26,585 bases of DNA from positions 1 to 26,585 of the forward strand of contig CAZVBB010000001.1 of the NCBI GenBank assembly GCA_964625285.1. The letters are read 5' to 3'. Under the pieces are notes generated by a model. It was not told the DNA's origin, did no database searches, and worked only from the letters and a program-made list of their open reading frames with translations. Shown here in pieces: positions 7,604 through 25,584 of this stretch; the first letter of the stretch is position 1, and each line of letters starts with the position of its first letter. This stretch comes from an uncultured bacterium (GTDB lineage: Bacteria > NPL-UPA2). The translations under genes were made by a program, and so were the position numbers.

Positions 7604-7677
7604 TTTCACCTCCAAATTACAAGCTGTCCTCTTTGATCAAAAAAGTCACCGGTGCACCAGTCAATAGGCGGGACATC

Positions 7678-7876
7678 CTTGTCCCGCTCTTTAAAATTAC
7701 AAGCACCAAACCACAAATTACAAACAAGCACCAATGACCAAAATTACAAACAATGGATGAGATTCTTCGGGCTTCGCCCTCAGAATGACAACAAGGTTGT
7801 CAGTTTTGAACATTTGGTGATTTGAATTTGTGATTTGTTTGTGATTTGGAATTTGTATATTGTGATTTTAGCATTG
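7678..7876. repeat. Composite heptamer-arm element, copy 1, with a central GTCATT/AATGAC-family module
   Basis: 7678-7719 is identical (42 bp) to 22034-22075. A/C-rich left arm, T/G-rich right arm. Module 7757-7802 occurs inverted at 22075-22120. Confidence 0.88.
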
Positions 7877-7952
7877 CTCTATGCCCTATGCTCTATGCCC
7901 TCTGCCCCTTGAACCCTTGACCCCTTTCTTATAGAAATTTTTCAAATTCCTG

Positions 7953-12499: not shown

Positions 12500-12540
12500 A
12501 ATATCCCCTCGCTAATTTCGAAATTCAAGTACCTTTAAAT

Positions 12541-12606
12541 GAGATTTCTGAAAAAGTCAGAAATCTCTGAAATCAGAGGTCTCTGAGTATTTTTTCGGAA
12601 ACCTCT
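12541..12606. repeat. Double-hairpin repeat family, copy 3, in the probable alaS leader
   Basis: GAGATTTCTGAAAAAGTCAGAAATCTC-TGAAATC-AGAGGTCTCTGAGTATTTTTTCGGAAACCTCT. Confidence 0.85.
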
Positions 12607-12617
12607 TAGATAGGAGT

Positions 12618-17771: not shown

Positions 17772-17792
17772 AATCTATATTTTTTAGCATGT

Positions 17793-17975
17793 AGAGATTT
17801 CCGAAAAAGTCCGAAATCTCTGAAATCGGTGTAATCTGACCCGAAGGGTCATTCCGAGCGAAGCGAGGAATCTCAATGAGATTGCTTCGGCAAGTTCCCT
17901 CGCTGTCGCTCGGGACAAGCCTCGCAACGACGTCGGTGTAATCAGAGGTATCTGAATATTTTTTTCAGAGACCTC
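17793..17975. repeat. Double-hairpin repeat family, copy 4, interrupted by a GTCATT...AACGAC palindrome
   Basis: Hairpin A 17793-17821, insert 17837-17932 flanked by TCGGTGTAATC (17826-17836, 17933-17943), hairpin B 17944-17975. Confidence 0.85.
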
Positions 17976-18493: not shown

Positions 18494-18657
18494 CAAGAAA
18501 ATTCGTCGCTTCGCTCCTCATTTCCTTCCCTAAGGGGCTCCGCCCCTCGGGCGTCCGCCTGAGGCGGACTGTCACCCCATGAGGGAAACCAGATTGTTTC
18601 CCTATAAACTTCTCCTAATCCGCATAGGAAAGGTTTTATACTTTCCTATGCTACAAG
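18494..18657. repeat. 164-bp multi-hairpin repeat, copy 1
   Basis: Direct repeat of 19422-19565 with an extra 20-bp hairpin segment at 18533-18552. Confidence 0.92.
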
Positions 18658-19421: not shown

Positions 19422-19565
19422 CAAGAAAATTCGTCGCTTTGCTCCTCATTTCCTTCCCTAATCCGCCTCAGGCGGACTGTCACCCCATGAGGGAAACCAG
19501 ATTGTTTCCCTATAAACTTCTCCTAATCCGCATAGGAAAGATTCTATACTTTCCTATGCTACAAG
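19422..19565. repeat. 144-bp multi-hairpin repeat, copy 2
   Basis: Near-identical to 18494-18657 apart from the 20-bp segment. Confidence 0.92.
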
Positions 19566-22024: not shown

Positions 22025-22033
22025 CATCAAATT

Positions 22034-22300
22034 CTTGTCCCGCTCTTTAAAATTACAAGCACCAAACCACAAATTGACAACCTTGTTGTCATTCTGAGGG
22101 CAAAGCCCGAAGAATCTCATGTCATTACTACTAACAGTGAGATTCCTCGCTCCGCTCGGAATGACTTGCAGAGCAAGTCAGTTTTGAACATTTGGTAATT
22201 TGAATTTGTTTGTGATTTGACACAAAGTGTCTCACTTAATTTAAGGTTACAGAAAATTATAGCCGTGATGGGAATTTGTATATTGTGATTTTAACATTGC
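22034..22300. repeat. Composite heptamer-arm element, copy 2
   Basis: Shares the 42-bp left end, TCAGTTTTGAACATTTGGT and GGAATTTGTATATTGTGATTTTA with 7678-7876. Confidence 0.88.
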
Positions 22301-22331
22301 ATTTTACCCTCTGCTCTCTACTCTCTACTCT

Positions 22332-23810
22332 CTACTCTCTGCTCTCTGCTTTTCCTTCCAGCGCCCATTGACAAGCCCCAGTAATGGTAACCGACACTAA
22401 ATCTCCAATTATACCTTTTTCTCCTTCGAAAACAACAACTTTATTTGTCCTTGTCCTACCTAATAATTTGAAAGGAGCTTTTTTCTTTGTTTCCCCAGCC
22501 AGCACCTCAACTCTTCTGCCAATCAGGTTTTCATTTCTCCTAACACTTATTTCCCCCTGAACCTCCTGGAGCCTCTTAAGCCTGTCCTTCTTTACGTTTT
22601 CAGGGACTTCATTCTTCATCTTTGCTGCCTCAGTTCCTGGACGAATAGAATATTTATACATAAATGCGTTGTCAAATTCAACCTTTCTTACTATATCAAG
22701 TGTATCTTCAAATTCCTTCTCGCTTTCCCCGGGAAAGCCAACAATAAGGTCTGTCGTTATTGATAATCCTGGAATGGTTTCTCTTGCCTTTGAAATAAGG
22801 TTTAGATAAAAATCTCTCGTGTATCCCCTGTTCATCAGTGCAAGGATTCTATTTGAGCCGGACTGCAGTGGAAGGTGAAGATGCTCGCAGACCTTTGGTA
22901 AGTCAGAAACCGCCTTCAGTAAGCGCGGAGTTACCCCTGATGGATGAGAAGTAATAAAGCGGATGCGTTTCACTCCATCAATACCGTTAATCTCTTCAAG
23001 CAAATCTGCAAGGTCAATATTTTTCCATCCATTGGTCGTTTTCAATCTGGATTTATATGAAGTAATATCCTGCCCAAGAAGCAAAAATTCCACAAAACCC
23101 TGTTCTGTTAGATGGACTATTTCATCAACAATTTCTTCAAGTCCCCTACTCTTCTCCTTTCCTCTCAGATATGGAACCACGCAATATGAGCAGAATTTAC
23201 TACATCCTCTCATAACTGCTAACGATGTGCTAATCTTTCCATCTTTTATGATTGGAAGATTAGTAAACCCCGTTAGAAAGGATGGGGCTTTGAACCCCAC
23301 CCTTTCTTGAAATAAGGATGGCAATTTATATTCATCCCCACCCCCAGGGGTGGGGCTTTCTAACGGGGTAAATGGCAGTTTGTCACTTTCTCCAATATCA
23401 ACAATTCCCTTTGTTGCTTTCGCCTCATTCAAGAGCTCCCCTATTCGGTGGAAACTATGTGTCCCGCAAACCAGACTCACGGAAGGAAAGCGACGAATAA
23501 TTTTTGCCCCTTCTTTCTGAGCCATACATCCACACACCCCGATAGTTAATGGCTTACTCTCTCTAATCTTTGATAATCGCCCCAGTTCACTCCACACCTT
23601 ATTTTCAGCGTGCTCTCTTACGCTACAAGTATTAAGTAAAACCACATCAGCCCTTGAGGCATCATCTATAAGACCATATCCATCGCCGGTTAAAATACCC
23701 GCCATAATCTTTGAATCATACTCATTCATCTGACAGCCGAATGTCTTAATATAAACCGAGGGCTTTCTTTGGGCGAAAGTCTTCATAGGTTTACGGTTGT
23801 TTTTAGGCAT
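22332..23810 (-). CDS. miaB: tRNA-2-methylthio-N6-dimethylallyladenosine synthase MiaB, with a 35-aa MITE-derived insertion
   Basis: TFGCQMNEYDS, LNTCSVRE.AE, GCSKFCSYC (CX3CX2C), HLPLQSGS, TDLIVGFPGE and TRAM domain. Confidence 0.96.
   Translation of the reverse strand: MPKNNRKPMKTFAQRKPSVYIKTFGCQMNEYDSKIMAGILTGDGYGLIDDASRADVVLLNTCSVREHAENKVWSELGRLSKIRESKPLTIGVCGCMAQKEGAKIIRRFPSVSLVCGTHSFHRIGELLNEAKATKGIVDIGESDKLPFTPLESPTPGGGDEYKLPSLFQERVGFKAPSFLTGFTNLPIIKDGKISTSLAVMRGCSKFCSYCVVPYLRGKEKSRGLEEIVDEIVHLTEQGFVEFLLLGQDITSYKSRLKTTNGWKNIDLADLLEEINGIDGVKRIRFITSHPSGVTPRLLKAVSDLPKVCEHLHLPLQSGSNRILALMNRGYTRDFYLNLISKARETIPGLSITTDLIVGFPGESEKEFEDTLDIVRKVEFDNAFMYKYSIRPGTEAAKMKNEVPENVKKDRLKRLQEVQGEISVRRNENLIGRRVEVLAGETKKKAPFKLLGRTRTNKVVVFEGEKGIIGDLVSVTITGACQWALEGKAESRE
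23268..23368. mobile_element. 101-bp MITE inserted in frame in miaB
   Basis: TIR CCCCGTTAGAAAG / CTTTCTAACGGGG; TAAA at 23264-23267 and 23369-23372; 101+4 = 105 bp = 35 codons. Confidence 0.92.
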
Positions 23811-24204
23811 TTAATTCCTCATCAGGAAACATCATTTTAACAAACTTTTCTGCTTCTTCTATGTCTTTCTCAAGGGTTTTCCGCTTAGGAATCGAAGAAA
23901 TAGGTAACGGATAGCGCTCTATTAGATAATAAGATGATATCCGTTTACAAATCTCTCTAAATGACTCCAGGGAAGGTTTATATTTGACAGCGTCATCTAA
24001 AAGAGCGTCAAGGTCATGTATCTTTTTTAGGGCCCACCCCGATTGCAATAAGAAAGCCTTTATATACTTTTCCAGTGCTTGTTGCAGGAAAAAAGCAGTA
24101 GCTTCCATATCATTTTCTTTGAGCATTATGAAAATACGACGCCAATCCTTTCTCGCATATTTTAGCCAATCTGGTGGGTACAATGAGTTTTTTGCCTCTT
24201 TCAT
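23803..24204 (-). CDS. HEPN-domain protein (QQA.EK..KA / K.HDL / RYP subtype)
   Basis: QQALEKYIKA, KKIHDL and YY..ERYP motifs; coupled to the MNT gene. Confidence 0.88.
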   Translation of the reverse strand: MKEAKNSLYPPDWLKYARKDWRRIFIMLKENDMEATAFFLQQALEKYIKAFLLQSGWALKKIHDLDALLDDAVKYKPSLESFREICKRISSYYLIERYPLPISSIPKRKTLEKDIEEAEKFVKMMFPDEELNA

Positions 24205-24518
24205 AGTTCTACTCCTGTTTTTAAAATCTCTTCAATGAATTGATCGCCTATTCTTATTTTTTCTTCCAACTCAGATTGATTGAGCACTATGGGGAAAAAG
24301 GGTAGTCCATAACGAAGGTTATGAGCAATTGTTTTGACTCTTGCCATTCTCTCAAAGAAATCTTCAGTGGTTGGTGCGATCACCAATAAATCCACGTCAC
24401 TATCTTCCCCTGCCTCACCTCTTGCATAAGAGCCGTAGAGGATGACCTTTTCGGCACGATATTCTTTCTTTAACCGTTCGCTTATCCTTCGCAGTCGTTC
24501 AGAAATTTCCTGGTTCAT
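24201..24518 (-). CDS. Minimal nucleotidyltransferase (MNT)
   Basis: VILYGSYARG....DSDVDLLVI (GSX10DXD); 105 aa. Confidence 0.92.
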   Translation of the reverse strand: MNQEISERLRRISERLKKEYRAEKVILYGSYARGEAGEDSDVDLLVIAPTTEDFFERMARVKTIAHNLRYGLPFFPIVLNQSELEEKIRIGDQFIEEILKTGVEL

Positions 24519-24596
24519 AACACCACCTTCCTAATTGGCCGTAATACCGAAGATGTCACGCATAGCGTGAGACTTTTATGTAAATTGTGGTTTTCA

Positions 24597-25052
24597 TCAT
24601 TTTAATTTGGATTTTTGCAATGAATTGAGTAAGCTCTTCATCCGTTCTAAGAATTTTAATGAGTATCTTATGGCTTTCTTTGCTTCTTCGTCAGTGGAGA
24701 AAAAACTTAAATCATATTGATCAACATGCCTTATTTCTCTATGATAGTCAAGTAATTCAATCCATTTTTTCTCAAGTTTATTTGTTTTAACATATTTTTC
24801 TTCCAGATAGCGCGCTACGCATGCGTGGCTTTTCTCTCGATAGCCATCATAGAAAAGGATTGCCCGTGCGGAGTGGAACATTACCATATAAGACGCGAGA
24901 ACTGAAGAATCAAACGCCTTACCATTGAGTGTCTTATGGGATTCATCTAACCATTTTTCTGCCTTGTTAATAGACTGCATAGCTTTATCGTGTGAAGCGG
25001 GAACCTTTCTCAACAACCCTTTTTCTATGCAATCTTTATATCTGAATGCCAT
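24597..25052 (-). CDS. HEPN-domain protein (UPF0332-like subtype)
   Basis: SY.VMFHSARAIL..DG..EKSH and REIRH..QY motifs. Confidence 0.85.
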   Translation of the reverse strand: MAFRYKDCIEKGLLRKVPASHDKAMQSINKAEKWLDESHKTLNGKAFDSSVLASYMVMFHSARAILFYDGYREKSHACVARYLEEKYVKTNKLEKKWIELLDYHREIRHVDQYDLSFFSTDEEAKKAIRYSLKFLERMKSLLNSLQKSKLK

Positions 25053-25584
25053 CTTTTACTCCATATAGAACTATAGAACCAAACACAAGCGAATGATAAA
25101 ATAATGGGTCATCTTTTTTTGTCTTCTCTATTTTTTTATCAGTTAAAAATAAAGGCTTGATATTTTTAATCTCTTTGTGCAGCTTAGATGTTAGAGAGGC
25201 TAATTTTTCTTCGCTTACATCACTAACTTTTATCCATAAATCAATGTCTGAATCTTCAGTATTTTCTCCTTTTACACAACTTCCATATAATCCTACCGCC
25301 TGAATAAAAGAAAACCCTTTGAAGATGTTGAGGTTGGTGTTTTTTATGTTAAGTAAAATCTTGATTCCCTTGACCAAAGAAGAATCAGTTATAACAACTT
25401 TTCCTTTTGCTCTTCTTTTAAGGATGCTCATTTTTGTTAGGATATCAAAATATTTAGAAACAAGCCCCTTACTCAATCTTAATTGATTAGCAATATTATT
25501 AACGCTAATATTGCCGGTTTTAAAAACAATCGCCTGTAAAATTTTTATTCTCTCTTTAGTGGAAAATATTTTTTCCATGTTCAT
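25036..25584 (-). CDS. Winged-HTH + minimal nucleotidyltransferase
   Basis: N-terminal SVNNIANQLRLSKGLVSKYF HTH; LYGSCVKGENTEDSDIDLWI. Confidence 0.88.
   Translation of the reverse strand: MNMEKIFSTKERIKILQAIVFKTGNISVNNIANQLRLSKGLVSKYFDILTKMSILKRRAKGKVVITDSSLVKGIKILLNIKNTNLNIFKGFSFIQAVGLYGSCVKGENTEDSDIDLWIKVSDVSEEKLASLTSKLHKEIKNIKPLFLTDKKIEKTKKDDPLFYHSLVFGSIVLYGVKDGIQI

Follow-up and report, generated by a model that had tools for sequence, protein, structure and literature searches.

An in-frame hairpin element in the miaB gene of an uncultured bacterium belongs to a repeat family found in many phyla

In-frame insertion of selfish repeats into genes has been documented mainly in Rickettsia and in a few other genera. 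[quoted passage not shown] IS608, an insertion sequence (IS) of the IS200/IS605 family, inserts 3' of TTAC, which is recognised by a guide AAAG (GL) located 5' of a hairpin foot, and it is excised seamlessly (PMC3201880, PMC5934647). Here we describe a 101-bp hairpin element within the miaB gene of an uncultured NPL-UPA2 bacterium, in a stretch of 26,585 nucleotides (contig CAZVBB010000001.1, assembly GCA_964625285.1) called the window hereafter. We consider it likely that the segment is a copy of a mobile family that entered miaB at a TTTAC-T target, is translated into a loop of the protein and may have been mobilised as a single strand. The phenomenon itself, in-frame insertion of a small repeat, is already known; the size of the family, its phyletic breadth and its hybrid architecture are what deserves further attention. 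The initial annotation of the locus was right to name the RPEs as a precedent, but the novelty is weaker than it implied, since in-frame fusions by prokaryotic MITEs had been reported (PMC10969869).

The element occupies positions 23268 to 23368 of the window on the minus strand, is non-autonomous as judged from its sequence and the family alignment, and is missing from the closest miaB orthologues. On the plus strand, CCCCGTTAGAAAG at 23268-23280 has its exact reverse complement, CTTTCTAACGGGG, at 23356-23368; the two bound 101 bp that are flanked by TAAA on both sides (23264-23267 and 23369-23372), as first annotated and as sequence and script both indicate. The inverted ends match over 13 of 13 bp, the 13-mer is found exactly only at these two places in the window, and no second copy of the element was found within its 26.6 kb. 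The family alignment sets the top strand as the minus strand of the window, which is the sense strand of miaB. Read along this strand, the 5'-side TTTA (23369-23372, TAAA on the plus strand), presumed from the sequence, the empty sites and the oriented flanks to be the original target copy, precedes the left arm CCCCGTTAGAAAG (23356-23368), which holds the family-wide 10-mer CCCCGTTAGA and ends in an AAAG directly 5' of hairpin A. This hairpin, CCCCACCCC TG GGGGTGGGG (23336-23355), is predicted from the fold and from compensatory changes over 80 family members (helix 2). Hairpin B, GGGTGGGG TTCAAAG CCCCATCC (23281-23303), is likewise predicted from fold and covariation (helix 3), and its AAAG loop is conserved, the loop positions reaching at least 90% in the family alignment. 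The right arm CTTTCTAACGGGG (23268-23280) is followed by the 3'-side TTTA (23264-23267) and then by CT, which together give the family target consensus TTTACT. The element region folds much more stably than shuffled controls, both as RNA (-54.4 kcal/mol, z = -5.3) and as DNA (z = -5.1).

The host gene (22332-23810, minus strand; 492 aa) was identified as miaB from its open reading frame (ORF), Pfam matches and homologue alignment. Its product carries the UPF0004 (residues 19-116), Radical_SAM (199-372) and TRAM (430-487) domains and matches the solved MiaB structures 7MJV/7MJZ with E = 2.6e-92. All cluster cysteines are intact, the N-terminal cysteine triad and the CxxxCxxC motif being present, and C62, C95, C203, C207 and C210 are invariant in the alignment. 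The element and one TAAA add up to 105 nt, which correspond to residues 148-182, TPLESPTPGGGDEYKLPSLFQERVGFKAPSFLTGF, and of the six frames through the element only that of miaB is stop-free. The addition of 35 residues with the frame kept, and their location between UPF0004 and the radical-SAM domain, had been proposed at the outset and agree with the translation and the Pfam coordinates.

We then compared the site with its orthologues. The three closest MiaB homologues in a search of 5.8 billion protein sequences, P0002, P0003 and P0004 (76%, 74% and 70% identity, respectively), lack the 35 residues, and the alignment shows a single 35-aa insertion at this point. Their DNA has a gap of exactly 105 nt: the empty sites read CCA/CCG TTT TCT AAT CTT where the window has CCA TTTA(101 nt)TTTA CTAATCTT, and retain one TTT(T/A). 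An independent JGI contig, 3300030092 (L125), carries the same insert and is 99.79% identical to the window over 4.3 kb, with 9 single-nucleotide differences, none of which is within miaB. The presence of the insert in this second contig makes an assembly artefact unlikely and shows two close populations, at least, to be fixed for the insertion. An exact 26-mer across the miaB side of the junction, chosen to pick up filled as well as empty alleles, had 0 matches in metagenome_contigs.

To define the family we used the arms CCCCGTTAGA...TCTAACGGGG. The pattern CCCCGTTAGA-N66-96-TCTAACGGGG was scanned in a collection of species-representative genomes and a stricter 13-mer pattern in a metagenome collection; all counts of flanks, orientation and frames given below cover the listed matches from these two scans. 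The terminal motif turned out to be abundant, with at least 120 matching stretches in each of the two collections. Among the matches listed were Omnitrophota, many Patescibacteria, Planctomycetota including Brocadia, Desulfobacterota and other "delta" lineages, as well as Thermodesulfovibrionia, Nitrospirota, Spirochaetia, Cloacimonadota, Stahlbacteria and Edwardsbacteria, and the listed matches of the genome collection all lie in metagenome-assembled genomes (MAGs). The 10-mer is common to all members by construction of the scan; the arms run beyond it with covarying bases, and the internal sequences are highly diverse. Element lengths are concentrated at 90-115 nt, but there are also mini forms measuring 29-31 nt, and one MAG contains identical 94-nt copies at several loci. 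Identical 4-mers flank 73 of 143 listed copies (permutation mean 11.1, maximum 21) and, in the 13-mer set, 87 of 119, 76 of these being TAAA/TTTA. The subfamily of the window is laid out as arm, hairpin A, AT-rich centre, AGAAAG, hairpin B and arm. In an alignment of 80 sequences, 93.4% of the cells of hairpins A and B are paired, against at most 61% with slid partners, and double-sided changes number 83, where shuffles give 42.7 +/- 9.2. There were 0 matches in viral contigs, and blastn against plasmids gave a single chance match of 30 nt. A literature search on the two terminal 10-mers returned unrelated primers only, no account of the terminal motif was found in the literature that could be searched, and nothing relevant was found on MITEs in the candidate phyla radiation or Omnitrophota. 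The family seems to be large, to span several phyla and not to have been described previously.

The flanks of these copies are tied to the orientation of the element. When the listed copies were oriented by their internal sequence, TTTA stood on both sides in 74 of 104 and TAAA on both sides in none (0/104); this coupling is also present in unrelated subfamilies, and no copy in the opposite orientation was observed. Reconstruction gives an asymmetric target, with no upstream signal, then TTTA, C (81%) and T (68%), and the miaB site from which the element has been removed, CCATTTACTAAT, matches this TTTAC-T target. With an orientation-tied flank and an asymmetric target, duplication by the staggered cut of a DDE transposase is not expected, and an insertion like that of IS200/IS605 elements fits better. 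On the oriented strand, AAAG is found immediately 5' of the CCCC...GGGG hairpin A, and the AAAG in the loop of hairpin B sits 5' of an alternative terminal hairpin, CCCCG...CGGGG. The initial view of a MITE with a target-site duplication holds for the terminal inverted repeats and the repeated tetranucleotide, but its duplication label calls for a qualification, because the flank follows the orientation and the target is asymmetric. The net frame arithmetic, +105 nt, is the same under either insertion model.

We looked at the genes around the copies, in about 1.57 Mb of flanking sequence from about 240 loci. Five genes resembling Y1_Tnp or RAYTs (transposases associated with repetitive extragenic palindromic, or REP, sequences) were present. 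In one of them, at locus L172, an element lies on the stop codon. Its orthologues share a conserved locus: six contigs (L246-L251), with the identical protein P0291, have another copy 46 nt downstream, and two other ortholog variants, on three contigs (L252; L259/L260), have no element. No DDE transposase was found between or beside the copies in these flanks. Pairs of ends 0.4-4 kb apart enclose housekeeping genes only, with no autonomous element in the flanks that were searched (not whole genomes), and all-against-all clustering of 907 ORFs from the element loci gave housekeeping families only. The flank pattern, the asymmetric target, the guide-like motif next to covarying hairpins and the absence of a DDE transposase from these flanks suggest a Y1/HUH mechanism of the IS200/IS605 or RAYT type; we hold a single-strand HUH/Y1 mechanism to be about as likely as not.

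In our preferred reading, a copy entered, in the recent ancestry of this organism, a TTTAC-T in the part of miaB encoding the flexible linker from UPF0004 to the radical-SAM domain. The net gain of 105 nt consists of the 101-nt element and a second TTTA and, there being no stop in the miaB frame, the gene stays open and the element is probably translated. As to its movement, a HUH/Y1 transposase that works on single strands, of IS200/IS605 or RAYT type, would most likely have acted on it in trans, the order on the top strand being TTTA(C)|, linker, AAAG-hairpin ... AAAG-hairpin, linker, TTTA(C)|. Insertion would take place 3' of a TTAC-type tetranucleotide and in one orientation only, the apparent target-site duplication being made up of the target tetranucleotide and the element's own right-end copy, and pairing between the perfect inverted arms in single-stranded DNA would draw both cleavage sites together.

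Several observations weigh against this mechanism. No transposase sharing these ends was found, the Y1_Tnp gene of contig L141 is flanked by a different inverted repeat, and RAYT adjacency is only weakly above chance, L172 itself having been found through its element. IS200/IS605 elements are normally devoid of terminal inverted repeats, whereas perfect terminal arms of 10-13 bp are the most conserved feature of the present family. A lagging-strand-template bias is absent, with ratios of 40:36 relative to GC skew and 36:40 relative to the coding strand (n = 76, proxies only), and a comparison of G.T with A.C wobbles did not single out a functional strand. Hairpins A and B are of opposite arm polarity, and are thus not two copies of one recognition hairpin. 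The conserved arms and the lack of replication-strand bias would suit a classical MITE, derived by deletion from a DDE-type IS whose transposase would bind the 13-bp repeats and make a 4-bp staggered cut, leaving a true TAAA/TTTA duplication. So would the identical 4-bp flanks, which are far above chance and, unoriented, resemble a palindromic R-TNNA-Y target, as well as the size, AT-rich targets and intergenic preference, all typical of MITEs. However, a symmetric transpososome should give neither a flank coupled to orientation (74:0) nor an asymmetric target, and the 1.57 Mb of flanks hold no 0.4-4 kb element with these ends that encodes a transposase, so that we judge a classical MITE to be a tentative explanation and on the whole an unlikely one. 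Three other candidates were set aside. A likeness to piggyBac/IS1380 (ends CCC...TAGAAAG, 4-bp T..A flank) was dropped, because the asymmetric flank follows the orientation of the element and no DDE gene turned up in the flanking sequence. Ownership of both TTTA copies by the element was excluded, since the orthologous empty sites retain four nucleotides (TTTT), and an attC-like or lox-like recombination site at the arm-TTTA-arm junction was not favoured, as the targets are without arm similarity.

Comparison with known systems places the family between several of them. Like the RPEs, which are palindromic repeats of about 100-150 bp lying in frame in unrelated housekeeping genes and adding a fold-compatible peptide conserved between copies (PMC10969869), it provides an in-frame repeat in several unrelated ORFs with a conserved added peptide. 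The RPEs are confined to Rickettsia, whereas the present family occurs in MAGs of many phyla, is marked by CCCCGTTAGA...TCTAACGGGG arms, has a TTTAC target entered in one orientation, and lies mostly between genes, with about 10% of copies intragenic. With IS608 and its IS200/IS605 relatives, including PATEs and Nezha-type MITEs, it shares insertion in one orientation next to a T-rich tetranucleotide (here TTTA|C-T), an AAAG 5' of the foot of a CCCC...GGGG hairpin (GL AAAG and target TTAC in IS608), subterminal hairpins kept by compensatory change, and a target unchanged apart from the element. AAAG precedes both hairpin A and the terminal CCCCG...CGGGG, but the polarity of A and B differs and no guide-target covariation accompanies the resemblance. 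Unlike IS200/IS605 elements, the family has perfect 10-13-bp terminal inverted repeats, identical left and right cleavage tetranucleotides, no lagging-strand bias and no tnpA or tnpB found between its ends.

REP sequences and bacterial interspersed mosaic elements, mobilised with RAYTs (TnpA-REP), are similarly hairpins of high copy number that lie mostly outside genes and have a conserved tetranucleotide 5' of the stem; the mini forms of the present family, at 29-31 nt, are REP-sized, and RAYT-like genes lie near some copies, including one syntenic RAYT locus that looks single-copy. The tag of the present family is, however, TT(T/C)A (TTTA/TTCA) and not the GTAG or CGTC of REPs (PMC3733652; PMC8266576), and the majority of its copies measure about 100 nt, contain internal hairpins and have a repeated flank, with no REPtron-like clustering shown. 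Classical MITEs such as Correia, ERIC, RUP, Chunjie and QMITE are also small and non-coding, with terminal inverted repeats (13/13 bp in miaB), short direct repeats, a stable fold and occasional in-frame fusions to host ORFs (PMC10969869). They differ in that the flank of the present family is coupled to orientation, that we know of no parental IS, none with the same ends being found in the flanks, and that the family spans phyla and not one genus. Identical 4-mers are common and the empty site has one copy, as a duplication would give, yet the flank is always TTTA in the orientation of the element (74:0). The closest analogue would be the RPEs in effect, IS608-type elements and REP/RAYT in mechanism and MITEs in form; the family lacks one defining feature of each of the mechanistic families.

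We then examined in-frame copies in other proteins. Each element and one flank were removed in silico, and a restored ORF was counted if it had at least 60 codons on each side. Restorable ORFs contained 23 of the 235 listed copies, whereas 51% of positions drawn at random from these loci fall in such ORFs, intragenic copies thus being about five times rarer than expected. The initial annotation had predicted an enrichment of intragenic copies whose length plus the repeated flank is a multiple of three, and this was the case: (length+4) is divisible by 3 in 19 of 23 intragenic copies and in 93 of the 212 others (odds ratio 6.1, Fisher p = 6e-4). The intragenic survivors are the minority left once selection has purged disruptive insertions. 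At least ten proteins besides MiaB have in-frame copies, in line with the original proposal that the family can enter ORFs and leave them translatable. Hosts confirmed by Pfam are Memo-like, IorA-like thiamine pyrophosphate enzyme, MBL-fold, PMT_2 glycosyltransferase (four orthologues, same site), DUF6785, GH57 branching enzyme, UvrD/PD-(D/E)XK helicase-nuclease, LUD+CCG oxidoreductase and MnmG proteins. Most copies lie between or beside Pfam domains, a domain match being interrupted in MnmG and DUF6785. Three frames of the element are in use (TPLES...FLTG, YPVRK...LSNGV and NPVRK...LSNGV). The TPLES peptide profile, FTPLESP...FLTGFT, which it had been suggested to search for, retrieved 324 protein-cluster representatives, mostly short ORFs over intergenic copies and a few long proteins; hundreds of spurious public "hypothetical proteins" are translations of this repeat, which is an annotation issue. 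The four PMT_2 orthologues have the same 98-nt element at the same site (L136:1050-1155, L173:822-927, L190:259-364 and L226:2269-2374), and these copies are 94-100% identical to each other while the flanking coding DNA is 65-80% identical. Constraint at the nucleotide level, gene conversion or repeated insertion could account for this conservation.

What the insert does to MiaB can be approached by modelling. The protein aligns to 7MJV in two blocks, residues 16-136 and 192-487, and the linker from UPF0004 to the radical-SAM domain is 55 aa long here against 22 aa in 7MJV. In an AlphaFold2 model built from a 19-sequence alignment, residues 142-180 have a pLDDT below 50 and no secondary structure, both flanking domains being confident (pTM 0.73). 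The insert is probably a disordered surface loop of 35 residues between the domains, and the enzyme, to judge from its sequence, probably still works. An mRNA structure of -54 kcal/mol inside the ORF could reduce expression, which counts against this view, and such a stable hairpin also speaks for an alternative in which the insertion has inactivated miaB or the element is removed from the mRNA like an intron, no working protein then containing the 35 residues. The carriers, moreover, are only two nearly identical strains, so that selection after the insertion is not measurable. Against inactivation or removal, one frame in six is open and miaB uses that one, the ORF is otherwise intact with all catalytic cysteines conserved, and the PMT_2 insertion is kept in frame in orthologues with flanks that are no more than 65-80% identical. 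Frame-preserving, stop-free copies are present in at least ten other genes, which removal at the RNA level would not need, and an Rfam E-value search of the element region gave no match near any gathering score and no ribozyme or intron signature. We therefore consider inactivation or removal improbable, and a translated loop remains our preferred reading. That the segment might be an assembly artefact or a native variable linker, the length of the MiaB linker being variable and more distant homologues having other inserts there, is hardly credible, as two independent assemblies agree, the segment agrees with more than 200 copies elsewhere in its complete terminal and internal layout, and orthologues at 70-76% identity precisely lack it.

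Other observations concern miaB and its surroundings. The gene for P0002 (L001) has another in-frame insert, of 33 nt, about 20 codons upstream and starting with the same terminus, CCCCGTTAGAGG.... In the window, miaB closes with five codons and a stop (AESRE*) that come from a 14-nt tandem repeat, GCAGAGAGCAGAGAGTAGAGAG... (22305-22350), where the orthologues end in ...GKIN, which makes it a second repeat-derived change in this gene. More distant MiaB homologues (P0043, P0013, P0041, P0010, P0007 and P0027) have long inserts of other kinds, repeat-like in sequence, in this interdomain linker, and such inserts also occur after the radical-SAM ...NSY motif, for example SINRTPT...GLINQAPTD, DKSDRYNT repeats and GETDARKGDV repeats. 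From these sequences, MiaB linkers seem to take up foreign segments repeatedly. Directly upstream of miaB lie two tandem nucleotidyltransferase/HEPN pairs (23803-25584 in the window; L125:8209-9984), a comparable pair is present upstream of miaB in a 70% relative (L004:1906-3110), and L125 has type I restriction-modification genes farther upstream.

Some members of the family are arranged in ways of their own. Nested or tandem copies (L059:2334-2438, L064:2274-2409, L087:893-1054 and L118:2935-3022) include mini elements within full elements and duplicated right ends with their flanking TGAA, indicating that the elements insert into one another. Complete tRNA genes are enclosed between CCCCGTTAGA and TCTAACGGGG arms at L034:4971-5060 (Thr), L044:431-539 (Val), L068:1140-1248 (Ala), L070:1366-1476 (Val) and L092:5057-5166 (Ala). 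In L034 the arms directly abut the tRNA, and the flanks of the tRNA-enclosing pairs are mixed, TTCA on one side and CYYG/CRRG on the other. These pairs may reflect cargo capture or elements targeting tRNA flanks.

Further repeats and transposase traces were noted. A mosaic intergenic block of about 250 nt is common to positions 7675-7917 and 22031-22340 of the window (84-98% identity); it holds a 50-nt inverted pair (7757-7806 / 22071-22120) translating as MRFFGLRPQNDN, as well as GTCATTCCGAGCGAAGCGAGGAATCTC (17848-17878 / 22135-22165), and L125 ends inside it. We take this block to resemble the widespread 'ARNDK/QNDN'-type repeat of many MAG annotations. Another palindrome family of about 31 nt, AGAGATTTCTGAAAAAGTCAGAAATCTCTGA, is present in at least four of the window's intergenic regions (1054-1117, 2559-2668, 12534-12608 and 17787-17975) and at L141:7905-7935, on a metagenome contig with four CCCCGTTAGA elements. 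The RAYT-like gene L172:106-744 encodes ...GLALPNQGAASSAPTKD... shortly after its HUH motif (HVH), which resembles a LINQAPT-type repeat peptide and may, from its sequence, be another in-frame repeat insertion. A 150-aa ORF at 59-511 has only the C-terminal half of an IS1595-type DDE transposase domain (PF12762, E = 2.4e-10); it is a transposase fragment at the edge of the window and has nothing to do with the 4-nt flank of the element. Small ORFs between ThpR-like and HflX genes are bracketed by direct repeats (18494-18657 and 19422-19565) of about 145 nt that are 97-98% identical and lie 908-928 nt apart.

Insertion of a selfish repeat in frame is one of the few one-step routes to a new segment of a bacterial protein, and here one family is found in a tRNA-modification enzyme of an essential pathway and in at least ten other proteins of uncultivated lineages. 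The result is a considerable natural collection of sites that tolerate insertion, most of them located between domains or next to them. It is possible, though we regard it as doubtful, that the CCCCGTTAGA...TCTAACGGGG elements form an undescribed, multi-phylum superfamily of hairpin transposons, moved as single strands by domesticated Y1/RAYT enzymes and combining IS608-like guide/target logic with perfect arms. If this were true, the family would generally supply proteins with new linkers, in an RPE-like manner, in Patescibacteria, Omnitrophota, Planctomycetota, Desulfobacterota and others, and its members could also enclose cargo such as tRNA genes. The 94-100% identity of in-gene copies, in host genes that are 65-80% identical, would then imply that copies are still re-inserting, that gene conversion takes place or that the element has a function as nucleic acid. 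Through its MITE-like perfect inverted arms, the family offers a connection with single-strand HUH transposition that can be put to the test.

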